NCBI GenBank assembly: GCA_030324005.1
Contig: JARDVH010000115.1
Coordinates: 19,494,176-19,558,175, forward strand
Direction of reading: 5' to 3'
DNA: 64,000 nt
DNA from: Negaprion brevirostris
Taxonomy: Eukaryota
Positions within the stretch are counted from its first letter, which is position 1, and the number at the start of each line of letters is the position of its first letter. Of the stretch, positions 1 through 27,356 are shown piece after piece. Made by a program: the position numbers and the translations under genes. The notes under the pieces are model-generated. The model did no database searches. It was not told where the DNA came from and saw only the letters and a list, made by a program, of their open reading frames with translations.

Positions 1-986
1 CTAACTGGAAGTCGCCCCCTCAGAATGGATCCCCAGGCTATTGTGACAGGTAAGCAGGATTGGTTATCCCAGTCAATAAAGCCTGCTAGGTGGCCAGCAA
101 ATGCCCAAACAGGTAAGTAAAGAACTTCATTCTGCAGGAGGAACCCAGAAAGAAGGCCTGGCATAATGAAAACAAAATACTGCAAATGCTAGAAATCTGG
201 AGTAAAAACAGAAAAGCCCAGCAGGCCTGGCAGCATCTGTGGAGAGACAAGAAGAGTTAATGTGAAGGATTCTCCAATCTCATCTGCACGCCCCGGGCTT
301 CATTCAAAACTCTATTAGATTCAGCAGTACCAGAGAATCACAACTGTGGGTGGGATCAGAGGTTTTTGGGGAATGTTTCAAATCCAAATGACTGTTCATC
401 TGAAGAACGGTCATATTAGACTCTCACCAAAACCAGAAGAACCCGCTAAAGATCAACAGGCCTGTGCTTGGCCCGTTCCCCGCCCACTTTGATTCCCATT
501 GTGCAACAGGAAAATTCCACCCATTTAACTCTCCGCAGATGCTGCCAGACCTGCTGGGATTTTCCCACATTTTCTGTTTTTGTTTAGGAAGGTTGCTTCC
601 TCAGTGTGAAGGTGTGCTGAAGTTCTCCTGTGCCCAACTTACTGTCTAACTTTCACCTGCTGGCCATCAGCCAGCTGTCTTTCTCCCGCTGTTTCAGGTG
701 CACAGTTGGTCAATGGGATGTTAAAAGGCCGAGTTGTAAAGATCGACTGGGCATCTGACACGAGAAGTCCAGTGTCTGCTCCTGACTTTCTGGCAGGGAA
801 TTAAAATCCACACTGGAGTCCTTGGCACTTGTTTGTTTATTGAAGGAGATAACTCTGTGCCTTCTGCTGTCAAAACAATTAGACAATCTCAAAGCTTACA
901 CTTAAACAAGAACTCAAACTTCTCAAAATCTACTCGGAAATTGTTTTGTGTCTGAATCTGGTGTGGAATATTTGAATGTAATCATT

Positions 987-1284
987 CACGGTAGCACAGT
1001 GGTTAGCACTGCTATTTCACAGCTCCAGAGACCCAGGTTCGATTCCTGGCTTGGGTCACTGTCTATGAGGAGTCTGCATGTTCTCCCCATGTCTGCGTAG
1101 GTTTCCACTGGGTGTTCTGGTTTCCTCACACTGTCCAAAAGAGGTGTGGTTCGGTGCATTGGCCGTGCTAAATTTTCCCTCAGTGTACCTGAGCAGGCGC
1201 CAGAGTTTAGTGACTACGGGTTTTTCTCACTAACTTCATTGCAGTGTTAATGTACGCCTACTTGTGGCATTAATAAATAAACTT
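987..1284 (+). mobile_element. HE1/V-SINE, alternative 3' tail
   Basis: tRNA-like head (gcacagtggttagcac...ggttcgattcc), V-domain core, tail ending aataaataaac. Confidence 0.85.
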
Positions 1285-2345
1285 GAAGTTATCGGAGCTA
1301 TATACGCTAGACCACAATGAATCCCAGCTGCAGCAGAGAAAGAAATACTCTGTTAAGAGAGAGTTGGTACGGCGGACTGGATGGGGAAAAGCTGCCACAA
1401 AGACAGAGGCTTGAATTATGAGATGAACTGCCTCATAAAAGGTCATCCGTGGTTCAGTATGTATGTAAAACGAGTTGTGTCTTTTGAGTTTGGCAAATGC
1501 TGCATGTAAAGAAGGTGCCTGAAGTCAAGAAAGCCGTAGATTCAACATTATTCTATGTAAGCTTGAGGGAGGTGGCGGGTGATGGAGAGATGGGTGCAGT
1601 GTGTGACTGTTCTGCAGTGTATCTGTGGGGGATTTGAGCAGCAACCATTCAACTATAATCTGGATCACAAACTCACACCACTCAAGATGTTTTTACTCAA
1701 TCAGCTATGAATCCAAAAATGATTGTAAGGTTACCCCAATTTTATGCTGGATGTTAAACACAGCCTTCAGGGCATGAGGAGGATTTTCCCAACCCTAGCC
1801 AGGGCGACTTATTATCAGAAATGTTTACTTGCAACTCAGAATCAAATGTAGAAGGTCATATTAAAAAATAGCTCCATAACTGACAGGGTAAAGGATTATG
1901 ACACAGTAATTTGGCCACAACAGGCAGAAGTGAATGGAATTCCGTTTGGGCTGTACCACAGGACAAGTGAAAGAATGATTTCACCTCCAAGAACTTGTAT
2001 TATAAATATCAGCCTTGCAGTATTTGAGATTGTGGAGGCTTTTAAAAAATAATTTTTAAAAAAATGTCTTGACTGAATTGTTGTATCAAGCTCAGGCTGC
2101 ACCATATTTATGTTTGTGTCCTAAATGAAGCTCCATAAATAATAAACCTTACTGAGGTAAAAATTGGTAGAGTATTTTTTGAAAGAGTGGCTATGTATGG
2201 ATATGTGTGTGTGAGAAAGAATGAGTGCACTACCAAAATTCTGTTGTAGTTTTTGTTTCAGCCTCGAATCATATAGCAAAGGGGGTTATTTCTTGTTATG
2301 ATGGCTCTTTGAAAGAGTTATCTAATTAGTTGCACTCTCCCATTC

Positions 2346-2677
2346 CATAGAATCCCTACAGTGCAGAAGGAGGCCATTTAGCCCAACAGATCTGGACCAA
2401 ATCTCTGATAGAACATCTTACCTGGGCCAACCCCTGCCCAATCCCCGTAAACCTGGGTATTACCATGGCTAATCCATGGGCCACTAAGGGGCAATTTAGC
2501 ATCACCAATCTGCCTAACCTGCAAATCTTTGGAGTGTAGGAGGAAACTGGAGCACCTGGAGGAAAGTCACATAGACACAGGGAGAATGTGCAAACTCCAC
2601 ACAGACAGTCACCTAAGGCTGGAACTGAACCCAGGTCCCTGGCGCTGTGAGGCAGCAGTGCTAACCAGTGTGCCACG
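2346..2677 (-). mobile_element. HE1/V-SINE
   Basis: Reverse complement of head, V domain and ...ctgtagggattctatg tail. Confidence 0.88.
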
Positions 2678-3339
2678 TGTCCCCCTACATTCTTTATCCG
2701 TAGCCCTGCAAGAGAGCACAGGATGCTGTCAGAAGTGGAAGAGGTGTCGCATCAATACACTTGAGGGCATCTTTCTNNNNNNNNNNNNNNNNNNNNNNNN
2801 NNNNNNNNNNNNNNNNNNNNNNNNNNNNNNNNNNNNNNNNNNNNNNNNNNNNNNNNNNNNNNNNNNNNNNNNNNNNNTTGTCTGAGGTAAAGGATGTTAA
2901 ATCCACTGACATCCCCCCTTTGATGAACACAAGAATGTATTAAAACAAACACTTGCCATAGTAAAGTTTGTCTGCACCTTAACGTCGTTTAGCAACGGCC
3001 CTCAGTCCCTGAATTTTCTGTTTAAATTTATAACTTTATACCCAGTGAGAAGATTATGCAACAGAGGGGAGAATGAAACAGCTGTGGTTTCAATCTATTT
3101 CTGGTATACATGTTATGTGGGGTTAGCAGAACCTTCCTCCAAATAAACATTGAGCAGAACAAAGTAATTGTCTTCCATAATTATGCCCACCACAAATACT
3201 ATTCCCTCACAACAGACTCCCATCTCTCTCCCAAGGCTGCACCAGGCTATTGGCAAACTTGGTGTCACAATAGACCCCAGGATGAGCTTCTGAGCACATA
3301 TTCATGCCATCAATAAGACCACATATTACCACCTGATTA

Positions 3340-3657
3340 CACAGTGGCACAGTGGTTAGCAGTGCTGCCCCACAGCACCAGGGACTCGGATTCAATTCCT
3401 GGCTTGAGTCACTGTCTGTGTGGAGTTTACTACTTCTCTCCCCATGTCTGTGTGGGTTTCTTCCGGGTGCTCCAGTTTCCTCCCACAGTCCAAAGACGGG
3501 CGGGTTAGGTGGACTGGCCATGCTAAATTGCCCCTTAGTGTGGGTGGATTAGCTGGAAAAAATACATGGGGTCCTGAGACTAAGGGTGGGATTGTGATCG
3601 ATGCAAACTCAATGGGCTGAATGGCCTCCTTCTGCTCTGTAGGATTCTATGATTCTA
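3340..3657 (+). mobile_element. HE1/V-SINE
   Basis: Full head, core and gattctatgattcta tail. Confidence 0.88.
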
Positions 3658-3869
3658 CAGATTATCTGCTGCTGACCGGCTCATCCTCCAGGCTTAACTA
3701 TTCCAATGCGAGAAAGTCTGAACTCCCACATTTCTTTACTCAGTCAAAGATTGTGGTTGTTGCTGACGAAGGCAACATTTACTGCCCATCCCAAATTGTC
3801 CCTCTTGAACCACTGCAGTCTTTGCAATATAGGTGCTGTAAGGGAGGTAGTTTCATCATTTTGAGCCAG

Positions 3870-4590
3870 AGACAGTGAAGGAAGAGAGAAGGTATCAATA
3901 GACTGGTCAGGTGGGCAGGAAAGTGGCAAATGGAATTAAACCCAGAGAAGTGTGAAGTGAGGTCAAACAAGGCCAAGGAATGCACAATTATTGGGAGAAT
4001 ACTAAGCGGTGTAGAGTGACCTTGGTGTGAATGCTCACACATCCCTGAAGGCAGCAGGGCAGACCGATACAACGGTTAAGAAATCATTTATAATCCTTTC
4101 TTTTATCAGCCGAGGTATAGAATAAAGATGCAGGGAGGTTATGCTGGAACCGTATAAAACGGTAGTTAGGCCATAACTCAAGTACAGTGTGTAGTTGTGG
4201 TCACATCATTACAGAAATGAGGGGGGGGGCGGTTCCAGCCCTGCCTGCCCCAGGAATCATAGTGGGCAGGGAGGGGTGGACCATGCATAGGTCTATTGAC
4301 CTCAGATAGGATTTTCCAGTTTTGGGGTGAGCACAGCTGGAAAATCCCACCCACTATCTTCATTCTACTGAGGGTACAGTGGAGATTTATGAGCATGTTG
4401 CCAGGACTGGAAAATTGTGGCTGTGGAGAAAGATTGGATAGGCTGAGGTTGTTTTCCTTAGAACAGAGGAGGCTGAGGGAAGATTTGATTGAGATGTACA
4501 AAACTGTGAGGTGTCTGAATAGAGTGAATGGGAAGGGCCTATTCAACTTGGCAGACAGGTCAATGATCAGAGGACATTAATCTAAAGCGA
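3870..4590 (+). mobile_element. CR1/HER1-like LINE 3' fragment with an internal insertion
   Basis: RT C-terminal peptide ERLDRLRLFSLEQRRLREDLIEMYK (ORF 4296..4580). Confidence 0.85.
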
Positions 4591-5360
4591 TTGATAAAAA
4601 GATAGACAACTTATCTCTTGATGCGGCTCAGTGTTAAACTTTATTTGATAACACACGAGTGAAGACCTTTGAGAAGTTTTGCTATGTTAAATGTGTTATG
4701 TAAACAGCTGTAGTTGTTGCACTAAATTTGCCTTGACAAGACAGCACTGTTTAAGGAATAAGAAGAAATACATTTCCTATCATTCTGCCACATTGTGCCA
4801 AATATATCATTTCATAATGCAAATTAACTTTGTTCGCATCATTTATCCACATTACGCCCCATTATCAATCATTGCTCCAGCTCCTGAGCCTCTCCAGATC
4901 TCTCTGACTAATGTCAACATCGAGTATTTTTCCAACCCACACAATAATGTGTCATCAGGAAAAACATAAATCCAGCCTTCGGCCTCCGCCCTAATGCCAC
5001 TTTTGTACATATAAAAGGATCAATCCTGGGGAACCTCAAAAGCTATCTCCCTCCCCCCTCCCCATTGCAACTATTTCTGATTGTAACTATTGGGAGACAT
5101 TTCTTGTTTAACTGGTATTGAATCCACTCTATTGTTGTCTGAAGTTCATGTTTTCCTCTCCTTTACTACAGGACTGGAGTATATTATTTATCAATGTTTG
5201 AAAGCCAGTTTGTATAATCTCAGCTATAATTCCTCCATCTGGGAATTTGCTTCTTCAACAAATGACTCGTAAACATTATGATATGGAGACATAAGGCTTG
5301 CATTTCAAATGTTATCTTGAAATTGTATCTCTACGTATGCCATGTTTGTGAAACCTACCT

Positions 5361-5680
5361 CTCCACTCACCTGATGAAGGAGCAGTGTTCCAAAAGCTTG
5401 TGATTCCCAATAAACCGGTTGGACTTCAATCTGGTGTTATGAGACTTCTTACTAGTAAAAGTTACGATAATGGACTCATTTTCTGTTGTCACAGTAAGAA
5501 GTCTCACAACACTAGGTTAAAGTCCAACATTGGGCCTCTGACCCTTGTGACTCACCTGACAAAGGGCCAGATCTGAAAGCTAGTGGCTTTTGCTACCAAA
5601 TAAGCCAATTGGACTTTAACCTGGTGTTGTAAGACTTCTTATTGTGTTTACCCCAGTCCAAAGCCAACATCTCCACATCA
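5361..5680. mobile_element. Penelope-like terminal-repeat cluster (forward/inverted/forward)
   Basis: ctgatgaaggagc...aaataaacc..ttggactt..cctggtgttgt unit, repeated and inverted; related copies at 9281-9463 and 59232-59325. Confidence 0.6.
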
Positions 5681-5749
5681 TTTCGTGTTGTCAAACAGAA
5701 ATATGGAATATTTATGATACATATCTGTGGCAGCAGGAAAGAGCTAAAA

Positions 5750-8700: not shown

Positions 8701-9050
8701 TTGCACCTTTTGTGTTGATTTTATTCCAGTTGATATTAAGGTGGTTGAAATTCCCTACTTTTACTGTCCTATTCTTTCTCAGCAATCCCCACCGTGGGTT
8801 TCCTGGTGGTGAAGGGTATATTCACTGGGAAACCCCACTGATAATAGCGGGGCCAGAAAATCCCCTTGCCAACAAATGGTGGGCTGCCTTTGCAGAGGGT
8901 TGTGTGGAAAGTCCTGCCCCATGTGTCTGTAATTGCAATAAAATAATTCTTCCTGGCACCTGTCCATGCTCTCAGCTTGTTCACTAGGCCCCTTGCATTA
9001 AAATATATGCCACCACTCATGGAACAATCTCTTAGTATTCTGTTTTCCAA
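5750..9050 (-). mobile_element. Decayed long CR1-like LINE (endonuclease start ~9050, RT and 3' end ~7200-5750), interrupted by SINE and gaps
   Basis: YFNARGLVNKLRAW...IAITDTW endonuclease motif; ILNEYF...LKVDKSPGP linker motif. Confidence 0.75.
7210..7650 (-). mobile_element. HE1/V-SINE with a nested alternative-tail SINE fragment (~7305-7425)
   Basis: Same consensus on minus strand; the internal segment matches the reverse complement of the tail seen at ~1200-1284. Confidence 0.8.
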
Positions 9051-9156
9051 TCTTTGTTTTCTCTGCCTCCCGTACTCACCAGGATTGTGATTGTCCTTCT
9101 TTATTCTTCAGTTCAATTCCTATGTCTTCGTTTAGTGACCCACCTACAATATCATG

Positions 9157-9612: not shown

Positions 9613-10238
9613 AAAAATCCTCCTCACAGGTATGATAGTTTTTTTAATCTATATTGTGACCATCCCCTGCCTTTGTATTCCCCTCTCGATCTCATCTCAA
9701 AATCCTGTAACTGTGAATTGCAATTCTTGCTTTTCTTTTATCCATGGCCGTAACTTTCTGGCCATTCATGCCAGTGGGATCTTCCGGTCTCACCAACAGC
9801 CGACCACCATCATGGGTTTACAGGTGGCGAGGAGTGGGAAACCTTCCCTGCCTCCCATATTCACTCATTAATTTCCTGCCTTCCATTTCCATCTTCGTTT
9901 CTGTGCTCAGGTACCCATACCCCTGCCAACTATTTTCAATGTTCCCCAACGCCATTAGAAAAACTTTCACGCCACAATATTCATCCTGGCGGGTTTTTTA
10001 TTGATGCTATTGATGTCAAAGGAACCTTCAAGCCAGGGCCAGCGTTTAATTGACTGATATTATGTTCAGCAGAGCATCGCAAAGATATGTCTGGTTGAAG
10101 GTCATTCACCCATCAGGCCCAATTTCTCACAGAGACCGATAATTTCAACTTCAAAGCACCGAACTGTCTTTAGAATGACTTGGGGGGTTTTTATGTGCAC
10201 TTTCAGTACAATGTATTTATTTCGTCACTTTTAATTAC

Positions 10239-10363
10239 CTTCTGAATAGTTTCAGCAAATTGGTCCAAGTTCCTTGGTTTTCTTATTCGACCCAGTTTCT
10301 GGGATTTGAGTTCACACAACACATCATATATTATGATTTCACCAACCCCCCCGCCTGTCAGCA
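10239..10363 (-). CDS. Exon-like open segment (LTGGGVGEIIIYDVLCELKSQKLGRIRKPRNLDQFAETIQK)
   Basis: cacatttcag acceptor, AAG|gtaatt donor; open frame. Confidence 0.45.
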
Positions 10364-10504
10364 CTGAAATGTGAGCACCGAATTTAGTTACCGTGAACTT
10401 TTATCTATCGTCAATGGAAAAATAATCAGCTTTCAGCTGCATTTTTAATTGCTTTCTCGATTTCGATCTCACTTCACTACACATGCCCTCGATGCTCCAG
10501 TCAC

Positions 10505-10697
10505 CCTAACTGCAGCATAAGCAAGGATTCTGCAAACTGCCTTGGTGATGAATCTTTCCAAGAGATTTCCTGGAATCTGTACATTAGAAATAGATGTTTT
10601 ACAAGTTAATAATTTATAGATATTTGCAGAGGGTACAATAGTTTTCAGGTCTTCCAGTGTGTAAGAATATACTAATGGCTTACCAGAAACAAAATTC
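10505..10697 (-). CDS. Exon-like open segment of second locus (NFVSGKPLVYSYTLEDLKTIVPSANIYKLLTCKTSISNVQIPGNLLERFITKAVCRILAYAAVR)
   Basis: Within ORF 10469..10711; cttgcactag acceptor, gtgact donor; LLTCK..SN motif recalls fish mesothelin-like repeats. Confidence 0.45.
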
Positions 10698-11564
10698 CTA
10701 GTGCAAGACACTAAAGTGTTAACACATTAAACTAACTTTCTGTTCCGACTCTTATTAGACTGTTGTTTAATGTCAGTCAACTGCTAATAAGTTTAGATGT
10801 GGATAATCGAATTACTAGCACAGACAATGGATAAACTAGCCAAGAGAAAGGCCTTATCAACTCAAAGCATATAACCCCAGTAGACTTACATTATCTTTAG
10901 TGTGAGGCTTATAGAAGAAAAATTGAATTTCATATAACTAAATTTATCATTATGTATGACTAAGAGAATAATTTTTTTGTTTATTTCTTGTTATATTCAG
11001 CTTGGCGTAGCAATTAAGAGATATTTTGAGACAAATTCAACTCTGTAACAGGCTGCTGTAACCATTATTGTAATTCTTTAATAGGATCAGAATTTATACT
11101 TGGTAGAAATAAGACTGGAAGTGTATGTTGCATCATGCATCATTCTGCTTCCAGAAAGTTTAAATGAACAAATGCTTTTTAAAATATATATCTATTTAAA
11201 AAGATGTACACCAGTTACATCTTGGTAAGTTATATGCTTTGTTCAGTATTTACAGCAACAAAAGACTGATGCCATGGGCGAAATCTTATCAGTCTTGTTG
11301 ATGGAACTTGGATGAGAGGAGGAATGGGAAGTTGTAGGGTTGGTGTTTCATCAGCTCTAGCCTCTGTTTGACCTTGCCGAGGTGGGATGGAAGTGGCAAC
11401 AACCAGCCACCCGACAGTGGCAGCTGGCTGGGTTGGCCCGCAAGGCCAATGTTAACACATCATCAGAGTCTTCATCATAACAGGCCAGAGCTGCAAATGC
11501 AGACCATTCTGTGGAGGGGCGGCCTGGCAGTGATGATCACAGTTTGTGTTTGTTTAACGTTTTA

Positions 11565-11905
11565 GGTATGAGGAGAGGTAGGATAAACTCGGATTGTTTT
11601 CACTGGGAAGACAGAGGCTGAGGGACGACCTGATAGAAGTCTACAAAATTATGAGAGGCATAGATAGGGTGGATAATCAGAGGCTTTTTCTCAGCGTGGA
11701 AGAGTCGAATACGAGAGGGCACAGGTTTATGGTGATAGGTAGTAAGTGAAGGGGAGACGTGCAGGGAAAGTTTATCACGCAGAGGATGGTGGGTGCCTGG
11801 AATGCACTACCAGTGGAGGAAATGGAAACAGGCACTTCAGCAACGTTTAAGGTATATCTTGATAGATATATGAATGGGAGGCAAACAGAGGGATAGAAAC
11901 CATGT
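11565..11905 (+). mobile_element. CR1-like LINE 3' fragment
   Basis: LGLFSL..RLRDDLIEVYKIMRGIDRV motif. Confidence 0.85.
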
Positions 11906-13509
11906 AACAATATGCTATATTGTTCTTTGTTAAATTGTAAACCTTTTCAGAGAGCGCATTAAGATTGCCTTGTCCTTGTGGTGCCCCTCCCACAGCAGCA
12001 TTGCCCACTTCTGCCGTTAGGACTGCAGTCCTTGCAAGGTTGCTGGTCCTGTGATTAGGTCTGCAGCCTCAGGAAACCTCCCCCGCTCCCAGCTTCTCAA
12101 ACTGGGCACCTGGGGCAAAGGTGGCCAGTTAGGAGGCAGCCCCTTAAAAGAACAGGGTGCAAATGTGAGGCTGGGATCTTGAAATGGTTCCATCCTGCCA
12201 TCATTCCTAAGGGGGAGGTAAGATCCCGTTCAATGATTCTGCCAAGGTAGTTGTGCACATTGGTATAANNNNNNNNNNTTCATTGTCAGCATGGCTACGA
12301 GAGGGACAGCATTGAAGATCGGCTACTGTAGTTTTCCTGTGGAGTTGCTTGATTGGGTCACTGTTCTATTCTTGGAGCTGATGTACTCCTACATTCCCTC
12401 TTGTGACAGCCTGCCTCACTTTAGAAAATGCTGCATCATCAGGGATTCCTGTCCAAAGTTCCCCATTTCCATAGAATCTATCACGGTGATGGGCTGTACA
12501 TCCTTTTCAATACAGTATGCTCTTTCTAAGGGGTTGCTGAAATCTTTTGTTGAAGTTTTGTGTTCATCAAACTTGGGACATTAGCAAGAGGAGTGGGACA
12601 ACTTGTCAGAGATTTCTAGGTTATCTGTAGTCATGGTTGGTGTGCACACACTGTCACTAACAATGTGCCTTTACCTCAACCTTAAGAGCTTGTTAGTAGA
12701 CTTGAGAAAGATTTACTGTTTCTGTTCAAACTGATATCATAACAGATAGATAGATAGGTTCTTGATCAATAAGCAGTTCAAGGGTTATGGGGAGAAGACA
12801 GGAGAGTGTGGATGAAAATCATATTAGCCATGATTGAATGGCGGAGCAGTTGTTGGGACATCCAGCTTCATACCTGACATCATACCGGCAATCATGCAGT
12901 GTACATAGTTGTTCCTTTTGAAATCTGCTACTCTTGCATCTGTTCTGATAAGTATAAGGTGAAAAACATCAACAGCAAGTCTCATTTTCCAGTAATACTC
13001 AACTATTGGACCACTAAGAGACAATCAAAATTAAAACAAATTAAAAGAAACACGAGTACATCAACAATGTCTACTTATATTGATACAGCTCTTCTTTGCT
13101 TGAAAATATGTCTCAAACATGTTTCTTATAAGGAGGGATGGAGATAAGTGATTGGGTAATGAAGGACTTGGTGGGAGCAGGGTGGGAAATGGAGACTATG
13201 GTAGAGGAAATACATTTTAGCACTCACCTGAGGAACATATAATTGCCAGAACCTTCTGGCTGCACCCCTGTCACAGGGTTCCCAGTGGTGCAGGGTGAAT
13301 CAGTCCCACTGACTGCAGCGGGACCAGAAGATCCCACTTGCCAGCCAATGATGCACCGCCTCCCATGGCAAGAAACACGCCACAGGGAGGCCAGAAAATC
13401 CCTCCTAATAATTATGTTGAATATGGGAATATATGAATTTTATGTTCAATAACATGAGGACCAATTCCTCATATCCGATATCCAATAGATAGTAATATTT
13501 GAAACTTAC

Positions 13510-13855
13510 CCTTGATAATGGCATTATCGCTAGACTATTAATCCAGAAATTTAGCGAATGTTCTGGGTACCTGGGTTTGAATACCACCACAGCAGATGGT
13601 GGAATTTGAATTAAAAAATTATCTGGAAATAAGAATCTACTGATAACCATGAAACCATTGTCGATTGTCAGAAAAAAAAGCCACCTGGGTTCACCAATAT
13701 TCTTTAGGGAAGGAAATCTGTTATACTTACCAGGTCTGGCCAACACATTGCTCTAGAGCCATAGCAGTTGATTCTTAACTGCTCTTCAAGGGCAACTAGG
13801 GACATCATTACTGGCCAGCCAGCAACGCCCATGTTCCACAAATGGATAAAATAAA
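13510..13855 (+). mobile_element. Second tRNA-derived SINE family sharing its 3' tail with the LINE at ~30430-31040
   Basis: Box-B-like gggtttgaatacc; tail gggcaactaggg...ctggccagccagc resembles 31000-31040. Confidence 0.55.
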
Positions 13856-13879
13856 CAGGTTGACAACATTAGCTTAATT

Positions 13880-14270
13880 TTGTTAAACATTGAGGCTGTT
13901 CCCCTTGGAGAGGAGAAGGTTAAGAAGACATTTGGGAGAGGTGTTCAACATTATGAGGGGGGGGTGAACAGTGTAGGTAGGAAAACACTGTTCCCACTCA
14001 TAAAAGGATCAATAATGAGAGGATTTAAAGTGATTTGCAGAAGAGGTCAATGCCATGTGAGAAAAAACTTGTACCTGCAGCAAGTGATTTGAGTCTGGAA
14101 TACACTGCCTGGAAGTGTGTGGAGAGAGGTTCAATCAAGGCATGCAAGAGGGCATTAGATTACCTAGGAGTAGGGAAAAGGCAGGGGAATAGCACTAACT
14201 CATAATGCTCATTTGGAGAACTGGTGCAGACACAATGGACCTTGGCCTCCTTCCGCGCCATANNNNNNNN
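13880..14270 (+). mobile_element. CR1-like LINE 3' fragment
   Basis: Degenerate RT C-terminus and HE1-like tail. Confidence 0.7.
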
Positions 14271-16496
14271 TCTGTGAAAATCTTGGTGCAATGTATTCAA
14301 TTAAATGATTATTTTTGGAAAACAATAATATCTTTGAGTTTGTTGTCTTTTTGAACTGTCTCAATGACTACCACAGTAATGTTTATTTACTGCTGAGTTA
14401 GCATTGCCGAGTGTGAACTGTGTTCAGAGTCTGCCTTGCCATTTGTTTTTCCCTTGCCCACATAGTGAGAAATGTCAGTTTGATAAGAATTTGTTATGCC
14501 GAGTGCAAAATGTTGAACACATTATTAACCAAAACTGCCTACACAGCTGACCTAAGCAGAGTCTGCAAACACACTGTTAATTCTTGTCTCACATAATAAA
14601 CATTTGTGTTGATATAAACTGGCTAACGTTCCATATTAAAATCTTATCTGAGTCCTGCATATCTGACAATCTGACTAAGCAGTTCAAGAATAATAAATTG
14701 CAATCTACAAATCTTTATTTACAGTAATTAATTTTCTCAGATTAAACAAGCGTTCTCGCTGATTTGTTTAGAGATAGATTTCTGTCGTATTCATAACTGC
14801 AGTTTAACAATGTTAATCCATAAAATCTCTGTGTTCCGGGTTTGGCAATTAAACTACCATGTATTACATTGTTAAAAAGAAATGTGTTTGGTCTTTATTT
14901 ATGTGTGATAGACTAATAATAATCATGTTTCAAGATAGCGCCGGAGCGAGGCGATTTCTTGAAAGCTGTGTCCAGTGTACCCTCTAATTCTATGTTTTAC
15001 TCTCATTCTATGCTTCTAAAACTCTATTCTAACTCTTTTTACATTCTGCACCCTCTCCTTTCCTTATATGTATGGTATACTTTGTCTGTATAGTACACAA
15101 GGAACAATACTTTTCACTGTGCATCAATACATGTGACGATGATAAATCAAAGTGCATATTGAAAGTTTTGTTCGTATAGGCCATAATCAGAATTTGTCTA
15201 ATTATATTGCCATCATTATTTTTCCCAAGTAAAAGAGTTATAGATCCAGCAAATCGAAATGGGATAATTTTCAATGCATCTAGCCAATTAGGAGCGTATT
15301 TCATCAGAATTCATTCACTTATCTGGTGCTTTTAATGCAGCTTAACCAAGGGTCTGAAACAAATAAATATAAAATAAACAAAAAGGGAGAAAAAGTGAGA
15401 AACAATTCATTTTCAGAGTCAGAGAGTAGGTCCGGGTCAGGAGTAGAAGTAATGGTGTCAGGAATTGACATACACAAAAGATTGGAGTTAGAAGATTTAA
15501 TTGGTCCCAGAGGGAATATGAGGCTGAGGGAGGTTGCAATGATGAGGTACAGCAATTGGTCAGCATTTGCTGAACAATTCTGATTGTACTAAGTATTATG
15601 CTAATGTTATATGTTTAAAAGGGCTACAGGTTNNNNNNNNNNNNNNNNNNNNNNNNNNNNNNNNNNNNNNNNNNNNNNNNNNNNNNNNNNNNNNNNNNNN
15701 NNNNNNNNNNNNNNNNNNNNNNNNNNNNNNNNNNNNNNNNNNNNNNNNNNNNNNNNNNNNNNNNNNNNNNNNNNNNNNNNNNNNNNNNNNNNNNNNNNNN
15801 NNNNNNNNNNNNNNNNNNNNNNNNNNNNNNNNNNNNNNNNNNNNNNNNNNNNNNNNNNNNNNNNNNNNNNNNNNNNNNNNNNNNNNNNNNNNNNNNNNNN
15901 NNNNNCAAGGGGGGGTTGGATGTTGTGTCTGCTCAGGGCTGGGCGTGATGGGGGGTGTGATGTAGTGTTGGGTCCACTCCAGGATGAGTCCTGTGCAGCT
16001 GGGGGGAATCTCATGAGCATGGTCAGAGCACAGGGATAACCTGGGGGTTAATTAGTTGAGTGGCTGGGGGTCCAGAGTGTGGGGAGTGTCTGGTCTCAGG
16101 GCTCAGTCGGGGTGTTTAAAATAGTTACACTGAAACAGTAAGTGGTTTTATTTCTTCTAACTCTTCCAGAGTAACTATTGGTGTAAAACTGGCAGAACCA
16201 TAGGAAATTAGCAATTTGAATCACTTTGTCTGATGGTTCCCAGCACAATGCAATTATCCAGGGGGGAATAATTTCCACATCCTCCCCTGGGCAGTTACAT
16301 CCTTTCCATAATGTGGTGACCAGGACTGCACATAGTACTTCAAGTGGCCTTCTCAGAGTTTTATACAGTTCCAGCATGACCTCCCTGCAAGACAATGTCT
16401 GGTATCTGCAAATAGTTAAAGACTAAGACTAAGAATTTAAATATACAATTCTCATGCTCCTCACCACTCAATATCTCAGTAACAACACTATATTTC

Positions 16497-16957
16497 AAAA
16501 GAGTTAAATGTCTACACCAGAAACCTCAGATTGTGAGGCATCAAAAGTTTGCATAATGTGTTTAATTCTATTTAATAACTCAAGCAGCAAGTGAGAGCAC
16601 CTTTGGAATTGTGTTCCTGATTGTGTCTTGACTTTCTCCAACAGTTCTGTGTGTAAATAAACATCACCAGTCTGTGTTCTGGTAAATCCCCAGCCACTTA
16701 GCTCTGTCTCCCCATCATTAAACTACTGAAGGATTCTGTTACTATGAGAATTGAGGGAGGGGGAATGAATCATTTCCACAAGTGCCTAAGCTAGGCTATT
16801 ACCAAGGTAAGTACAGCCAGCTAATTTTCTACCACCCACTGTTAGATGTAGATCTATTTTACCTTTATATCAGCCACCAATTATAGAATTAAACACATTA
16901 TGCAAACTTTTGATGCCTCACAATCTGAGGTTTCTGGTGTAGACATTTAACTCTTTT
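16497..16957. repeat. Perfect 75-bp inverted repeat (16497-16571 / 16883-16957) with 311-bp spacer
   Basis: aaaagagttaaatgtctacacc...tttaattctat and its exact reverse complement, checked base by base. Confidence 0.95.
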
Positions 16958-18822
16958 TACACAATAGAAATTTAAAGCTCAATGCCCTTAATTGGTGTAG
17001 GGGTGATGCTAATGACAGGGTGTTTAGATTCATAAAGATTTACGCGGCAAGTTGTTGAAATTGTGGACTGACAACATCACACTGAGGGAATGGCTGGACA
17101 GCACAAGGACTGAAAAGGAAGCGTAGGTTAGAATGCTGCCTTGAGTATCAAATCCAGCGCAGAAAGAAAAATCATGGAACAAAAATNNNNNNNNNNNNNN
17201 NNNNNNNNNNNNNNNNNNNNNNNNNNNNNNNNNNNNNNNNNNNNNNNNNNNNNNNNNNNNNNNNNNNNNNNNNNNNNNNNNNNNNNNNNNNNNNNNNNNN
17301 NNNNNNNNNNNNNNNNNNNNNNNNNNNNNNNNNNNNNNNNNNNNNNNNNNNNNNNNNNNNNNNNNNNNNNNNNNNNNNNNNNNNNNNNNNNNNNNNNNNN
17401 NNNNNNNNNNNNNNNNNNNNNNNNNNNNNNNNNNNNNNNNNNNNNNNNNNNNNNNNNNNNGAATCACGTTGTCTGCAGTTGTAAACAGATGTTTTTTCCT
17501 TTTTTTCTCATTGTTGCTGGGCTGTCTGCTACTTCAATGGCTTAAATAGGGGTTTGTTTATTTTAACTATGGGCTTTAGGTACTTTCTGGGATTTTTTTA
17601 TGACCCTGTGTTGTTAGGAGGAAGACTGATTGGCAGATCATGTGGTTTGGATAGTTTTTTCTTCTTCATAGTGAATTCAGGGTTTCACTTTTAATTTGGT
17701 TGCTGGCAGCAATTTTAGCTGACATCAAGCTGAGAAGAAGTGTTTTCAAAATTCTGCTGTTAGCTGGAAGCAAGGTTCCTGGCCTTCCTGGAGTAGAAAA
17801 TCTGCTGTTGGGGGTTGGTTTGTCTTGAGTCTCCCTGGTGTTTCGGGAAATTGTTCTGACTCCAAGGTTGTCTGTGTGCGCCTCAAGAGAATTGCAGCAT
17901 TCAGCCAAAGGACTAAATTTCAGTGCTGCGTGAGCATTGGTCTTTGCTGTGTTAAACCTGTGGCAAAGGTTTTGTTTGTGGGATTTGTTTCATTGGAACA
18001 GTGTTTAGCTGTTAAGGGTTATACAATATTGTGATTTCTTTTTCTTGTTTGTAACTGGTAAAAGATTTTGCCAATTTTCTTTCTATACGCGTTANNNNNN
18101 NNNNNNNNNNNNNNNNNNNNNNNNNNNNNNNNNNNNNNNNNNNNNNNNNNNNNNNNNNNNNNNNNNNNNNNNNNNNNNNNNNNNNNNNNNNNNNNNNNNN
18201 NNNNNNNNNNNNNNNNNNNNNNNNNNNNNNNNNNNNNNNNNNNNNNNNNNNNNNNNNNNNNNNNNNNNNNNNNNNNNNNNNNNNNNNNNNNNNNNNNNNN
18301 NNNNNNNNNNNNNNNNNNNNNNNNNNNNNNNNNNNNNNNNNNNNNNNNNNNNNNNNNNNNNNNNNNNNNNNNNNNNNNNNNNNNNNNNNNNNNNNNNNNN
18401 NNNNNNNNNNNNNNAGTGCAAAACTTATAATATAGGCAGACTTCACAGAACACTTTGGAGTTCCTGACCCGAATTATAACACAAGTGACACAGACAGTGA
18501 GATCGTCATTTTGAAGCCAAATGCAGAGCTCTGACAGAGACCTTTGAATCTTCACTTTTAGTCGCACATCAGTCCCACGCCTGAAGATACTATAACATTT
18601 ATGCTTTTACATATAAATAACATTAGTCTTACTATTATTATAAGAATAATTTATGGCCCATTGTGTTTGCTTTTACTCTTAACATTTACCATTTATCCAG
18701 AACATTGCCTGATGCTGATAATGAGCTTTGGAGCTAATCATGGCTCTCAGTTCAATGAGGTGATCACAGGTTAAAGCAAGAATATGTGAATATGTTTCCT
18801 GCAAATGTTTAATACCAATCAC

Positions 18823-19500
18823 CTGAAAACGTATTCAAAGTAAAACCACAAACAGCAGGCACAACCCCAGCAGCAGGAGTAGTTACAACACCAGGAGGAG
18901 CAGTTACAACACTAGGAGCAGTTACGACACCAGCAGGGGCAACTACAACACCAGCAACAGTTATGACACCAGCAGGAGCAGAAAAAACACCAGCAGGGGC
19001 AGGAACAACACCAGCAACAGTTATGACACTAGTAGGAGCAGTTACAAAATCAGTAGGAGTAGGAACAACACCTGCAAGAGCAGAAACAACACCAGCAGGA
19101 GTAGGAACAACACCTGCAACAGTTACAACACCAGTAGGAGCAGTTACAAAATCAGTTGGAGTAGGAACAACACCTGCAAGAGCAGAATTAACACCAGCAG
19201 GAGCAGGAACAACACCAGCAGGAGCATGAACAATACCAGCAGGAGTAGGAACAACACCAGCAGGAGCAGGAACAACACCAGCAGGAGTAGGAACACCACC
19301 AGCAGGAGTAGGAACACCACCAGCAGGAGCAGGAACAACCACCAGCAGGAGCAGGAACAACCACCAGCAACAGTTACAACACCAGTAGGAGCAGTTACAA
19401 AATCAGTAGGAGGAGGAACAACACCAGCAGGAGCAGTTATAACACCAATAGGAGCAGGAACAACACCATTAAGACCAGCAGCTGAGTTAACCCCAGCCAC
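18823..19500 (-). repeat. 21-nt-unit tandem repeat (ccagcaggagcaggaacaaca variants on +); probable coding exon of (PAGVVPA)n type
   Basis: About 30 degenerate units; minus-strand ORFs 19144..19512 and 18809..19360 are linked by two +1 insertions near 19340-19362; flanked by aaag|GTG and TCAG|gtgatt. Confidence 0.85.
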
Positions 19501-21447
19501 CTTTTGTGCCACAGGATAGTGGAATGAGTGGTCGGTGGGGGGATGGGGGTGGGGCTAATTGACATCCCGCTGCAAATGAGTGAGTTGCTGTCATCAGCCT
19601 TTTCCCACCTCGGACTAATTGAGGGAGGTTGCCCTGCCAGCAGCTGACTGATCCATGGCCTCCCACATGACAAATGGAGCCAGACCACCATGTTCCCTGC
19701 TGCAACGGGCTGGATTATATTCTACCCAAACTTTGGAAGTATCTGGCTGGTGATACTTGTGGGGAGCCAGGTCATTGATGCACAGGGCAGGTACTACAAA
19801 AGTAACATCAGCTCAATAGTACTCACTGAATGAGCCATTAGATTACTGAAGATGTGGTTATGTTTTCAGTCTGCACTAGCAAAGGTTTCCAGAACAATAA
19901 TAATGTGTTATATGTTAATATGAAGCAGTAGACAGGACTGGAGCTGCTGGAGGATGGAAACATTCCCAGAATCAATAATCCTTTCATTTCATTGCTACTA
20001 AGGCCTTATCTTCAACTGTTGTCATATCATTTACTTAAGACTAATATCCACTTTACCAACACGAGGTAGCCATGGAGATAACTAGACAAGAATACTTAAA
20101 GAAATGTTTTTCATGCAGAGCCATTTATAATGGATCGATAGAGTAACTCATTTTAAACACCAAAGTGCTTTCCCTAATGAATCAAAGAATGTTTCTTTTC
20201 CTATTGGATGAGTGCTTGAAATATCATAACATTCAAGGATATGGGTCAAATGCAGAAAAATGGGAATCGCGTGCCTTTAGTGATTATTATTATTGTTACA
20301 GACTCAAAGGGCCGAAGGGCCTTTTCTGCATTGCATGACTCAATGTTTGATTACTTCGCAACTCTTTTGGCTTTAGCAGGGCAAGGGCAAGTTTCTCATT
20401 CCCTTGCTCTGAAAGATTTATACAGTGGGTCATACTCTGAGCTTAAAGGCTTAGTGAAGCTTTTCTCAATCCAATTTAAACTGGCAGATTAGGAAGGTCA
20501 TTCATGAATGCGAGCATGCAGGTGGCCACTCTTTACATGCAGCTTGACTCTAAAGGCATCAATGACATTATGCTGGAGACAGATTCTTCTCCAATGGAAC
20601 ACGGTGCCTCTGGAAATGCTGAGAAAGTCTCACACATTTTCTGCTGCTGTTCCAGAATAGTCCTCTTTGTGGATGACTCCCGAAGCTTAGCATTGGCACC
20701 CAGATGATCAGAACTAGGAGGGCCCGCTACCCTCAGATAGGAACTTTCCGCAGCTGTCCTTGTCTACAACACCTGCTGCTGCTCACTTGTGAATTGGGAC
20801 TGTGTGACAATTTAGTTCCTTGCCTTGGAGACCCCAAATAGGTGGATGAGTCTGCGCTGGTAGAGGGTAAGCATGAATCATTTGACAGTGCTGTCTCAGA
20901 GTCTGCACCTTTCTCTTGAGGAATTCTTGCACTCTTCCTGCATTATCTTTTGCATGAGACTTCAATGACCTGTTGAATGAATTAGGACTGCCGAAGGGAA
21001 AAGATTCAAAGTCATTTCCAAGGCTGGCTGCTTCGTCCTATCTCATGGCAAGAGAGTGTCTTCTCTAAGCAACTGCTTGACCTCCAAGCATGCCTCAGAG
21101 AACTAGTGACAGCGCTCCTAATTTGAGACCCCATCCTTGCAGTTGTCTGTATTCTGCCAACAGCATGTCAGCCTGACACGGCATGGCTCCATTCTGTCTC
21201 CTACTGGGCTCAGGTGTAGGTCACCGTCACACCTGGCCACTCCAATTACTTGGAAAACCTGAAAATGGGACACTAATAAAAAACACTGGAAAAACTCAGG
21301 TTTGGCAGCATCTGCAGAGAGAGGAACTGTTAACAGAGTCCGTTCGACTCTTCTCCAGAGTGGGATGCTAATGCTGTCACTCAGTTGAAAAGCTACAGTC
21401 GAGCCCACTCCAACAGCTTTTGAGTTCCCGATGCCCATCAGTTCAGA

Positions 21448-21760
21448 TACATAGAATCCCTACAGTGCAGAAGGAGGCCATTCAGCACTCTGAGTCTGCA
21501 CTGATTCTCTGACGAAGTATCTTATCCAGGCCCTCTTCCTGGCCTATCCCCCTTAACCCCACACATGTAGCGTGGCTAATCCATCTAACCTAAACATCCT
21601 ACACTATGATCACTTAACCTGCACAGCTTGGGACTTTGGCAGGAAACCACAGCTACCAGAGGAAACCCGTGCAGACACAGACAGAGCAATTAATCCAAAG
21701 CTGCAATTTAACCCGGGGCCCTGGCGCTGTGAGGCAGCAGTGCTAACCACTGTGCCGCCC
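21448..21760 (-). mobile_element. HE1/V-SINE
   Basis: Matches the family consensus on minus strand. Confidence 0.82.
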
Positions 21761-23593
21761 TTGATTCTACCCTTGATTCCAGTAGTGAGGGAGTATTGCA
21801 AAATCTTGCATGTTAACTCTAGTTTCCCTCTCCACAGAAGCAGCCAGACCTGCTGATTATTTCCAACTTTTCCACTTTTTATTTCTTATTTCTCACATTC
21901 ACTATACTTCGCTTTCTGTCCTGTGCTGATTATACTCCCAGTGCTCTGAAGGGAAGTTAAGTATAACTACTGCCAGGGTTTATTTTCTTCGCTAAGTGTA
22001 TATAAGGAAGGTATCTGCTATTTAAAGTGCAAAATGAGGAATTTTTCCATCAATGATTGTTGATCTGGTTGTAAAAAGATTTCTGTACTTCTGTCACTTT
22101 GGACAGTCGAGGGCTTTGTTATTTCTTTCTCTTGGACCTCCTTGTAACAAATTTACATTCAAGGTCACAGAAGGCACTAGGAGCGAAGATATTAAAGCTA
22201 GGATCAGCATAAATCAAAATAATTTTAATAGCTTTCACACACTGAAATATTTCTCTAGTCAAAGGCCAAATGCAAATGAAACTACCGTAGAATAGGTTTC
22301 AGTCAGTAGGTAGAGGATTGTGATGAAGACTGATGATAAGAGAAGTAAAGAAAAGCCACTGCAATCCCTAGTGTTTTCCTTTCAGTTCACCTAGGCTATA
22401 CAGAGGCCAATTAATTTTAATAATGGTTAATAGGTGGTGCTTGAATTGGTTATGATACTTGTAAACTTGCTAATGAAGACTAACTATGCCTCAGAGTTAA
22501 TCTGTGAATCATAGTTCCTGTCACTCCAGAGGCTGCTTTTTATGGTGCCCCCATGGGTTTCTTTCCAGTAGGGGAGGGTGGGTGTCCGACCCCACAACTT
22601 TCCCACTCACGTCCGAGCTCCCCCACAATAATATGGGGCTGGGTGGCACCAAAATCAACAGCCCACATGTCAATTTCAAATAGGTAATCAAGGATCCATT
22701 ATGCTTGCTGCTAAGTCAATTGACTCTAATAATATGTTGCCAAAGTTAGAGGGAAAGGGGGTGGTGTGGTTTCGGTCTCCAGGGGTTGCTCTTTACAAAT
22801 CAGTGGACAGATGGAGTTGCAGGTCAATCCAATTAAAAGTGGGGAATCAATGGACTACATTCACCACTATTTGTAGTTTATCATGGTCTCGGTCAGAGCA
22901 GGAGCCATATAAAGCTGTGATACCACCCCCCCCTCCCGCTCCAGTCCGACACGCCTCCGGATCCCACGCCGNNNNNNNNNNNNNNNNNNNNNNNNNNNNN
23001 NNNNNNNNNNNNNNNNNNNNNNNNNNNNNNNNNNNNNNNNNNNNNNNNNNNNNNNNNNNNNNNNNNNNNNNNNNNNNNNNNNNNNNNNNNNNNNNNNNNN
23101 NNNNNNNNNNNNNNNNNNNNNNNNNNNNNNNNNNNNNTGGCCCTGCTTCCTCTCTACGTTACCCACCCCCACCTTCCTTGGGCTGGGACACTCCCCCCTC
23201 TCCTTTCTGGTACAACCCCCCCACCCCTGCCAATCTGGGACAACTCACTCCAGATCCCACCTCTCCCCTCAGTATGATCCATTATACCTCCCCCCTCCCA
23301 CACACACAATTCGCTGGTCTATTGTACAGTCTCCACCCTCTCCAGTCTAGGAGCACCTGCCCTAACCACCCCGACCCCTCCATTTCGTGACACACACCCC
23401 CACCCCATTTGCCATTGAAACTAGCAACTATATCCCTTTAAACAATCCCCTCCCAGTAGCTGCTGCCTCATCCAGCTTGAGTGTGAAAGGTTGGCTGAAG
23501 CAGGAGTCTGTCGAGAGTGGCAATCCAACAGACGTTGCCACTTTGTGGACGTTATGGGGCAATTACTATGAATTCAATAGAAAGAAAACTCAC

Positions 23594-23607
23594 CAAGACC
23601 TTGGGAA
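23594..23607 (-). CDS. 14-nt microexon (VPKVL)
   Basis: ttgtcttttatgattcag|TTCCCAAGGTCTTG|gtgagt; converts phase 1 to phase 0, as needed to join the repeat exon. Confidence 0.45.
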
Positions 23608-24516
23608 CTGAATCATAAAAGACAATTGTGAACAATGGCAGTATGTGTAAAATAGTTGTTGGATGGGACTTTTGCCTTGGATCACAACTTTTGTACAGTT
23701 ACTAACAATTGTGAAGAGAGGAAAAATGATTTTTTTACTCTAGATTTTCTTTTCTTCAGTGTCAGGTAATTATTTGGTTATCTAAAATATTTATTTAAAA
23801 TAAACAGCAACTTAAAAATTCTGAAATTCTCAGAAAATCCAAATAATCTCGCTTTATAAAAATTATAAAAAGGTTCCAACTGCAGTGAGGGCAAAAATTA
23901 AAAGCTTTGTCTTTTACTTTTGTTCCCTGTATGGATATTCCAGAAATGTGTAGAAAAAGTCACGAATTTGCTCTCTTTACACAAGATAGACACTGAAGAG
24001 AAAACCATTCGATTAATTTTATGTCTTCTACCCAAAAAAAAACCTCTAGCATCTCCTCATTACACCTCCAAGGCTAAAGATTCAAAACTGTTTCAAATTT
24101 ATGCCAGAGGAACATTATCAAGCAATTTTGTTCCAAAGCTGCATTTAATGTGCATCTGTAGACCAGTCTAGTACTGGCACATTAAAGTTCCTGCAACTGT
24201 ATAAGTATAGTGATTTTAAGTTTTGTATTATAATGCCTTGAACAAGGTCTCTTCTCATTATCCTACTGAATTGCAAAATAGAATTTACCATTTTACAATC
24301 TGACCACAAACATCAATTGACACATTAATACTATTCTGGCATACAATGAACTGTTGCTAGTACAATACTATTAACATATCATCATTTATATATTAAAATT
24401 TGATTTTTAGGATGCATGTTCCATTGAAAACTCATGATTATTGGAGCTGCTATTCAGATATAGGTTACAGATATTTTCAATACTAAAACCATTTTATAGT
24501 TATACCAAGAACTTAC

Positions 24517-24567
24517 CCTGAGATTCTGCACTCGTCATTGGATTCCCATATATCATTTCAATCCATA
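24517..24567 (-). CDS. Exon of second locus (IWIEMIYGNPMTSAESQ)
   Basis: Strong sites atttttatttttccccag and CAGG|gtaagt; 51 nt, open in phase 1. Confidence 0.6.
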
Positions 24568-24680
24568 CTGGGGAAAAATAAAAATCAATAACTATTTTTC
24601 TCATTTTCTTTCCAGCAACTTTCCTTCAAACAATTGTGAAAAATGAGAGGACAAAGTGCAAATATTTTTCTGAGATAAAA

Positions 24681-24696
24681 TTTATTTTGTTTTATT
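24681..24696 (-). terminator. Tandem AATAAA poly(A) signals, candidate UNC79 3' end (alternative single AATAAA at 26098-26103)
   Basis: Minus strand reads AATAAAACAAAATAAA followed by T-rich sequence, about 2.35 kb after the UNC79 stop; intervening sequence is AT-rich and poor in recognisable repeats. Confidence 0.45.
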
Positions 24697-25075
24697 CAAA
24701 ACAGAAAAGAAATGTTTACAACCAGAGTAAATTAAATCAAGACAACACATGTCAACACAATGATTGGCTGACTGATAAAATCAAATTTCAATTGGTTTTA
24801 TATGTAGAAAATAACATTTTCTAGTGACAGTTGGCAATTTTTTCTACATCATGAATTTCTGTTATTGTGACCTTCAAAGATACTGGTGAACACTTTCATG
24901 GAAATATTCTCAGAGATGCAGTCAAGGTGAACTCCTTTGCAATAGAATAGCTAAATGTCATTCTTTCTTTTGCAGGGAGTAGTACACTGGTCTTTGAAAT
25001 TTATTTCGCACCTCTTTGCAGGATACTGTAAGATTAAGCCTCTGATAATACAATAAAACATTAACATGTACACAC

Positions 25076-25136
25076 TTATGAGTATGTACACCACTGGAAC
25101 ATAAATATCCAGGTGCTGCTTCTCCTGTATGTGCAT
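25076..25136 (-). CDS. Candidate first coding exon of second locus (MHIQEKQHLDIYVPVVYILI)
   Basis: ttcttttgcag acceptor at 25173, ATG at 25134-25136, gtgtgt donor; phase 1 fits the next exon and gives a hydrophobic signal-like stretch. Confidence 0.4.
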
Positions 25137-27048
25137 AAATTTTAATAAGGACAAACTGTTCTTTATTGGGAACTGCAAAAGAAACAGCTTAGGGGAGAAA
25201 ACAAAATTATACAACGCTTGAAGTATCACAGCAGAGCAAATGTGGGTCTCTACAGATTGAGCATATAAGTATTGATGAATAGCATTCTAATCAATTTCCA
25301 AACATATTGGTCAATTTCTCTAATGCCCTTTGTGGCATATATAGAAAGAACATTATAACTATGTATAAGCAAACAAGGCATTTTACACAAGTTCTTTACT
25401 AAAATGAGAACCATTATCAATGTTGAAGGGATGTTACATTAATGAGTACTCCATGGAATAATAGTAAGTTATGAACACATTCACAGTGTAAAGTTTGATT
25501 GGAAATGCTTTTGAAAGCAAGGGAGTGCAACAAAAATAAAATTAATTATTACTCTAATATCAGTATTGCTATCAATCTAAATCTTATTGAAAGCTTCTTT
25601 CTCTACAAATGTCTCCAAAACAACCTGGAGCAAAGACACTGCCCAACTTGTTCCTGCACTTTCCTAGTGCATTGAAGCCAATGGGCCACCAGAGTTGACT
25701 AACTCAACAGTTATTGAACCTGGCGTTCTCATGCTCAGTAGGACTCAACGCTGGACCATCAACTGTCAACTTAAAACTCCGCAGTTACTACAAATTATGT
25801 AACAACTTTTCATTTGATTCACTGATTTGGTACCAAACTAAACAGGAAAACTGACACTTCATCCTTTACAACAAATTTGGCTGCTGTTGCTTACACACTG
25901 AATTGTGGATCTCCAGCAACACACTGTCATTTCTTGTTGAAAAAACATATAAGAGATGAACGATAAAAGCAATGACTGGGTTAGGAAGAGAAATAAATGG
26001 AAACGGCTGTGAAAACAAAACAACTCTAATTTGTGCCACACTATTTATGCTATCTTATAAAATATGCTTTTATCTTCTGATATAGAATTACATATTCTTT
26101 ATTCCACAAAATATGTATCTAGTTTCATGATCGGCATGATAATTTACAGGAAAGTATATACAGTCTACTAGATACTGAAAAGATCAGTTTCTATTCTATT
26201 TTTAATAATGTTGACATTGATCTGAAGGGATTATTTACATCCACAGCCTAGTGGAATACCAGTAGTTAAACTGGTAAATGGATTTTCTTTCAGTATTATT
26301 GCAAAGTATGTCCTCAATATAAATTTTTCGCATACTTGATTTCTTTTCGGAGTTAGCACATTCCCAAAGACAGAATTAGGACACTAATTAGATTTTTTGG
26401 TGTACAGAGAAAAATACAGTTTCAGCAAATGTCAAGACCAAAGAAACAACATGCTTTCCAGCACAGCTGCACATTTTCCAAATACAGAATGTACAGAAGA
26501 GCACAATATCAGAACTGACACTAAATTAAGTGGCAGCAATATAGGATAAAATGTTGATAGATAACGACAGAAGTGATTTGAACAAATAAAAAAGTTACAT
26601 AATTCAGTCAGAAATTATATTTTCAACAACAAAATGGTTGTGAATAGGTATAAATGATACAACAGATTATATTGAAGCTGGTTAAAGCAACCCACAAGAA
26701 CACAAAAGCGTGTAAAATAACCAATTTAAAAGTAAATGTTTAGAAACAGATATGCTGTTTCATGACATCTCAAATTCAACACAACTGATGTACAAGATTG
26801 ATCATTCAATTATATTAAATTACAAAATACTGCCTCTAATAAAACCAAGTTCATTATTGTATTTATACACAGTATTTTTTTTAATAATCTCCTACAATGT
26901 TTGTAAAGAAGATAAAATGGTTATATATACAGACAGAGGCTGCTAGTTGCCAACATGCTAATGTTGCCTAATGTTTTATCAGCATAAGAGAGTTGAATAA
27001 AAGATGTCTCTGCTTCAAGTCCAGTGTACATAATACAAGGAAGAAAAC

Positions 27049-27249: not shown

Positions 27250-27356
27250 CTGTTGGGTTTGAGCCAGGTGGAAAATTGGAAGTGAATCAGTCATAATAAT
27301 TATGATGAAAAAATGTGGAACCACACTAACTTTTGGTGGCAAACAATGACACTTAC

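Follow-up and report, generated by a model that had tools for sequence, protein, structure and literature searches.

Closest Described Systems and the Interval Behind UNC79

Tropoelastin-like elastomers are built of VPG-type repeats that alternate with Lys/Ala cross-link domains, and the Pro/Thr/Ser (PTS) domains of mucins are tandem repeats dominated by Thr and Ser. The members of the mesothelin/otoancorin/stereocilin superfamily are glycosylphosphatidylinositol-anchored proteins whose several hundred residues form a helical superhelix (PMC2628672, PMC10035497). An initial annotation of a 64,000-nucleotide (nt) stretch of the Negaprion brevirostris genome (GCA_030324005.1, contig JARDVH010000115.1, positions 19,494,176 to 19,558,175; hereafter the window, numbered from its first letter) proposed a hidden second gene directly downstream of UNC79 on the minus strand, with an elastomer-like repeat fused to a mesothelin-type domain. 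From the sequence, we tentatively read the interval 25136-15319 of this window as a damaged or decaying short gene whose predicted product is a secreted polypeptide of Val/Ala/Pro/Gly/Thr repeats. As assembled, the exon that holds the repeats carries a frameshift; the candidate gene is likely small and lineage-restricted.

By composition, the array in the repeat exon belongs to neither the elastin nor the mucin PTS family. The locus resembles tropoelastin and other hydrophobic elastomers in predicted secretion, in richness in Val, Pro, Gly and Ala and in the phase 1-1 cassette exons of the bypass splicing model described below, but it differs in its VVPAPAG unit, in the lack of a VPG motif and of Lys for cross-links (0 of each in 220 codons), and in having one array exon instead of alternating domains; there was no sequence match. 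The likeness to small secreted mucin-like Pro/Thr/Ser-repeat proteins takes in a predicted signal peptide, short exons, a short Cys-bearing end and a single large minisatellite exon in which repeats of higher order occur (periods 21 and 102), whereas Thr and Ser make up only 33 of the 220 array codons, Val is the commonest residue, and Pfam returned no vWD, SEA or cystine-knot domain in the frames scanned. With the mesothelin/otoancorin/stereocilin superfamily the locus shares only a predicted N-terminal secretion signal and short peptides at chance level, and no frame of the superfamily's size and kind was found. The repeat polypeptide would be exported and would have a role resembling that of small matrix proteins of the mucin or elastomer type. 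A gene at the position 3′ of UNC79 was undescribed in the papers searched, most subscription papers lying outside the scope of that search, and a literature search for the motif VPAPAG gave nothing relevant by title.

Candidate 5′ Exons

Splice sites were scored with consensus matrices of approximate values, and coding potential was scored with a model built on ten UNC79 exons, eight of which were identified by eye. Nine of these ten exons, each left out of training, score at least -0.5 on the coding model, the null of which has a median of -4.4, a 75th percentile of -1.4 and a 95th percentile of 2.8. For reference, acceptor scores are 4.5-9.5 and donor scores 2.9-8.3 in eight UNC79 exons, of which seven were recognized by eye; one apparent UNC79 acceptor scores just -0.4, and, therefore, weak splice sites do occur.

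The initial annotation had joined four minus-strand exons in compatible phases, and this was borne out, since 25136-25076 (61 nt), 24567-24517 (51 nt), 23607-23594 (14 nt) and the repeat exon entered at 19500 all have AG/GT ends and the joints fall in phases 1, 1 and 0. Candidate exon 1 (25076-25136), picked out by hydrophobicity and coding score, consists of an ATG, a hydrophobic stretch that is a predicted signal peptide, and a weak donor; its coding score is 4.1, above the null 95th percentile. Exons 1 and 2 together reach a Kyte-Doolittle value of 2.78 over 11 residues, which is equalled by 10 of the 818 ATG-started frames in the window, and the N-terminus that they encode would, on this prediction, direct the chain into the secretory pathway. 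Candidate exon 2 (24517-24567, phase 1-1) stands out by its splice scores (acceptor 7.2, donor 6.6), which place it in the top 0.5% of sites; the same thresholds gave no candidate on the 64-kb plus strand and only two others on the minus strand, each extending into an interspersed repeat. The proposed microexon (23594-23607) has a good donor (4.4) and in-phase joints, but its acceptor is weak (-0.1, with 12% of AG sites as high), and 31 similar pieces of 6-30 nt occur in 128 kb of strand, so that it is not distinguishable from chance. The acceptor at 19500 scores -3.7, a value matched by 28% of AG sites. Of seven splice sites in the proposed chain of four exons, the consensus matrix marks three as weak (donor 25076, acceptors 23607 and 19500).

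Unspliced, exon 1 continues as a 61-codon minus-strand frame (24954-25136) with one hydrophobic segment and a weak Pfam DUF3339 row (E 0.0097, below cut-off). Just 5′ of its ATG lie acceptor-like sites at 25187 and 25172 and an AATAAA at 25167.

The Tandem Array and Its Frame

The candidate repeat exon (18823-19500, minus strand) holds a codon-phased Val/Ala/Pro/Gly/Thr array with the unit VVPAPAG and variants of it and ends at a donor at 18823, as recognized from repeat finding, the open frame and the coding score. Tandem Repeats Finder placed 29 copies of a 21-nt period with 77% matches at 18871-19468, and a higher-order period at 102 nt, in agreement with the Pro/Ala/Gly/Val repeat of the initial annotation. 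Val, Pro, Gly and Ala account for 162 of the 220 array codons, and T is the last letter of 188. Analysis of frame and anchor spacing showed that 34 of 36 spacings are multiples of 3, the other two being a pair of adjacent 22-nt units (19346-19368) amid the 21-nt array, where the register shifts at 19368 and again at 19346. Because of these two units, the frame spliced in at 19500, which turns into Cys/Trp and then a Leu/Val/Phe run, stops at 19144 after 160 residues; the peptide that had been presented as one open exon 4 joins two frames. From 19345 to 18824 the repeat frame is stop-free for 174 codons, up to the donor at 18823, which scores 4.6 (top 2% of sites). The coding score of the array is +9.2 on the minus strand versus -7.3 for the Thr-rich plus-strand frame; that frame also holds one stop, and a plus-strand mucin reading of the array was rejected on these two grounds.

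The extra base is repeated in neighbouring units, which looks more like mutation followed by unit duplication than like a read error. A collapsed third 22-nt unit would restore the array frame in place of a true frameshift.

Predicted Splicing Past the Frameshift

A transcript that took the microexon and the acceptor at 19500 would meet its premature stop 320 nt ahead of donor 18823 and would likely be subject to nonsense-mediated decay. A complete product would instead require exon 2 to be spliced directly to an acceptor within the array. Two acceptor-like sites past the frameshift, 19173 (score 6.8) and 19071 (9.2), are the two best between 24516 and 18900, and both are in frame with exon 2 (phase 1), so that a bypass is predicted here. 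The best acceptor between 18822 and 14200, at 15353 (5.5, likewise phase 1), opens a putative last coding exon (15319-15353, minus strand) of ten codons with one Cys and a stop, beyond which AATAAA poly(A) signals lie at 14899 and 14719. Exon 1, exon 2, the array entered at 19173 or 19071 and the 15353 exon together give a predicted chain of 165 or 131 residues. A short gene is favoured in that phase 1 is shared by the top two acceptors behind exon 2 and the top one behind the array, and in that the open frames close before poly(A) signals.

The uncharged, Lys-free repeat of such a chain would be disordered and would serve as a flexible, self-associating or O-glycosylated component of a matrix or mucus, and a small loop at the C-terminus could be closed between a Cys at the array's end and that of the 15353 exon. 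We consider it improbable, yet worth stating, that the locus encodes a new, lineage-restricted secreted VVPAPAG-repeat protein without a relative in the libraries searched, which forms an elastomer-like matrix component, and that its gene survives the frameshift by splicing to acceptors supplied by the repeat, so that repeat turnover would set both exon length and the point of entry. If the gene is expressed, it would encode a new secreted repeat protein beside a neuronal gene of deep conservation, might supply structural or mucus material in its lineage, and would be a coding minisatellite that brings along acceptors of its own; a dead or non-coding locus would be an ordinary case of decay.

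Possible Readings: A Damaged Gene or a Non-Coding Minisatellite

Several points weigh against a gene of any kind in 25136-15319. Both the splice and the coding models are rough, given the approximate matrices and the few, mostly eye-picked exons. The donor of exon 1 at 25076 scores 0.2, with 12% of all GT sites as high, while exon 2 has an unremarkable coding score (0.3) and was selected after the fact out of 25 kb. In the array, the stop-free state is near-inevitable where almost all codons end in T, the T/C richness by itself generates acceptor-like sites, and the coding score reflects base composition in part. A protein search with the array frame found no homolog among 8000 scored candidates, and in the ESM Atlas its best value was 0.83, of low recognition value. 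The 15353 exon was chosen by a single acceptor score and is separated from the array by gaps of 320, 274 and 273 N.

The likeliest alternative, although we regard it as rather doubtful, is that there is no second gene and that a non-coding minisatellite of GCT/GGT/GTT-type triplets stands with chance splice-like sites behind the 3′ end of UNC79. On this account the frameshift, the three weak splice sites, the 31 chance microexon-like pieces and the lack of a homolog in any protein search made are all as expected, slippage in a triplet-based array would likewise yield multiples of 3, and the AATAAA at 25167 falls inside the putative first exon. What it leaves to coincidence is the joint occurrence on one strand of an exon in the top 0.5%, a hydrophobic ATG frame in the top 1.2% that lies 0.5 kb upstream of that exon in matching phase, and an array that is free of stops and has a donor. 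The strong exon 2, the hydrophobic ATG exon and the 174-codon stop-free repeat frame with its donor make the 5′ part look better than chance; a hidden second gene is plausible as regards its signal-peptide-like start and its repeat exon, the latter in frameshifted form.

Downstream Segments and the Mesothelin Comparison

The mesothelin-type part of the proposed gene had been placed in segments 3′ of the array. The main mesothelin-like one (15474-15579, minus strand) was rejected on splice and coding scores (acceptor -8.1, donor -1.9, coding score -3.0) and gave no matches in Pfam, PDB or ESM Atlas look-ups (Atlas best 0.84, of low recognition value). The LLTCK..SN frame near 10600 (10472-10726, minus strand) is likewise unsupported, with a coding score of -3.7, no match at E ≤ 0.001 among 1.84 billion protein representatives and none at E ≤ 10 among 59 word-sharing candidates (proteins of 150-2000 residues). 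The SFTCPVVQ...QL segment (1864-2038, minus strand), which had been placed at about 1870-2038, is not a clean exon, since its acceptor at 2038 scores -5.7 and its coding score is -9.4, an in-frame stop stands two codons before the SFTC peptide (near 1980), and the closing QL is in a different frame; PDB gave no matches for it. As regards a C-terminal GPI-anchor signal, the 46-codon frame that runs from 2038 contains a hydrophobic stretch, but it depends on the same weak acceptor and has no link to the 5′ exons.

Pfam contains a mesothelin family (PMC2628672). None of the 162 minus-strand stop-free stretches of at least 32 codons outside marked repeats matched a mesothelin or stereocilin family, and none reached any curated cut-off, the best row being LRR_6 (E 0.0024); neither of two array frames did so either. 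A Pfam blank is only moderate evidence, as two real UNC79 exons likewise gave no UNC79 family. The motif to which the initial annotation had likened the main segment presumably belongs to the N-terminal half of the mesothelin precursor and thus lies outside the deposited structures. Structures have been deposited for mature mesothelin, and it is mature mesothelin only that the PDB test covers (PMC10035497); none of six segment queries found solved mesothelin there at E ≤ 10. The best PDB row, at E 0.0035, paired 21 residues of 15146-15310 with a designed helical-repeat protein. The 20-residue mesothelin pair of the initial annotation has a BLOSUM62 sum of 26, added by hand, whereas ten random 620-residue proteins each gave 73-153 windows of at least 26 in the same translations, with best sums of 34-42. 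Because random proteins match as well, the mesothelin motif likeness is at chance level.

Several downstream stretches have acceptor- or donor-like ends and protein-like frames interrupted by stops and shifts, and three have coding scores above the null 75th percentile (15310-15146, 1.5; the 10363 segment, 0.5; the 15579 frame, -0.5); below 15579 the pieces could not be joined into an uninterrupted frame. Two further candidates were set aside, a pseudo-exon at 13312-13228 that is multi-copy DNA by contig depth (coding score -10.3) and the distal part of the frame 15032-15310, which runs into a high-copy repeat near 15080-15120.

Comparison With Relatives

Six sequencing runs cover 10100-19600, none of them recorded as RNA, and contigs of three (X1, X3 and X4) were aligned to positions 9900-18830. 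The X1 contigs, in eight listed pieces, show 0-2 differences each from the window and are possibly its source, so they are not independent. X3 and X4 are two other organisms, which diverge from the window by 3.0 and 2.7%, respectively (eight listed pieces each). The stretch with the main motif and the 15353 exon (15127-15632) differs at 16 of 506 and 17 of 526 letters, i.e., by 3.2% in both relatives; each of the two carries five bases more than the window there.

In 9903-11422, 39 of the 48 differences of X3 are among those listed, and none is listed for X4 alone. The exon-like segment 10239-10363 (minus strand) is disrupted in X3, with nine listed substitutions where 3.3 are expected, seven of them residue-changing, a lost acceptor AG and a 5-nt deletion; four substitutions are common to X3 and X4, and three of these change a residue. 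The LLTCK frame at 10472-10726 carries only two of the 39 listed X3 substitutions (6.7 expected, nominal P 0.027), both residue-changing, and the depletion is not significant after scan correction (P 0.52), given that 52% of random draws contain some 255-nt window with as few substitutions. No tested segment in 9900-18830 acts like a constrained exon in these two relatives, with the limited power that 3% divergence affords, and conservation does not rise above background. The divergence of the downstream segments at the background rate, with the acceptor of one of them lost in X3, also favours a short gene. Below about 15000 the segments probably represent ordinary intergenic DNA and not a mesothelin-type domain, and the fusion of an elastomer-like repeat to such a domain, without a profile or sequence match and without constraint in the relatives, is not supported.

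These results also bear on the view, which we hold unlikely, that a large gene of many exons, perhaps from the mesothelin/otoancorin/stereocilin group, died long ago and left the interval as its unitary pseudogene, in which an N-terminal repeat and scattered exon relics are still visible. The broken protein-like frames with splice-like ends, the three stretches above the null 75th percentile and the weak match of 15146-15310 to a designed helical-repeat protein would suit such relics, and neutral divergence is what a pseudogene would show. Against this, no segment tried found a relative although the library contains vertebrate proteins, the three motif-bearing frames score as non-coding (-3.0, -3.7 and -9.4), and the mesothelin motif matches no better than chance. 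Very unlikely indeed is a large gene that is still intact and joins a signal peptide, a microexon and an elastomer-like repeat to a mesothelin-type helical domain, the frameshift being an assembly error, for although its 5′ joints are phase-compatible, assembly gaps could conceal exons, X3 has few substitutions in 10472-10726, the searches with that frame and the array reached proteins of up to 2000 residues and Pfam missed two real UNC79 exons, the same-species contigs are near-identical in 9900-18830, so the downstream stops and shifts that they cover are real, the relatives show no constraint and both changes in 10472-10726 alter a residue, that frame is without a match in a length-free search of the 1.84 billion proteins, and the acceptor scores are -8.1 at 15579 and -5.7 at 2038.

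Within the stretch of fewest listed X3 substitutions (one between 10493 and 10753) lies a 14-nt microexon-like piece at 10684-10697 on the minus strand (acceptor 2.0, donor 5.9), which may represent a conserved element, either non-coding or active in splicing. At the N gaps 12269-12278 and 14263-14270, the bridging contigs differ from the assembly length by three bases.

UNC79 and Other Features of the Window

The minus strand of the window carries the 3′ part of UNC79, directly upstream of the candidate gene and on the same strand, as had been annotated. Its last coding exon (27049-27249) was placed by a phmmer match of the frame 27052-27270 to solved UNC79 chains (E 8.8e-29), with the exon start taken from the sequence; the stop codon at 27049 is 1.9 kb from the candidate ATG at 25136. 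As a control for the protein search, the exon 33227-33424 recovered UNC79 relatives at E ≤ 1e-10 in 73 of 85 candidates; vertebrate UNC79 was among them, but none of the 73 rows named a cartilaginous-fish protein. PRIMA1, the mammalian 3′ neighbour of UNC79 on the opposite strand, did not turn up in the four plus-strand frames that were scanned. An Rfam scan of 1-28000 gave no matches. The window contains 16 N gaps, nine of them below 25200.

On the plus strand, an acceptor scoring 10.7 opens 34 codons to a stop (698-804), and strong donors lie at 49 and 112; the frame has no Pfam match and might mark where a convergent gene ends. A perfect 75-nt inverted repeat (16497-16571 and 16883-16957, 311 nt apart) flanks a 72-codon minus-strand frame and is either a miniature transposon of recent origin or an inversion artefact of the assembly.

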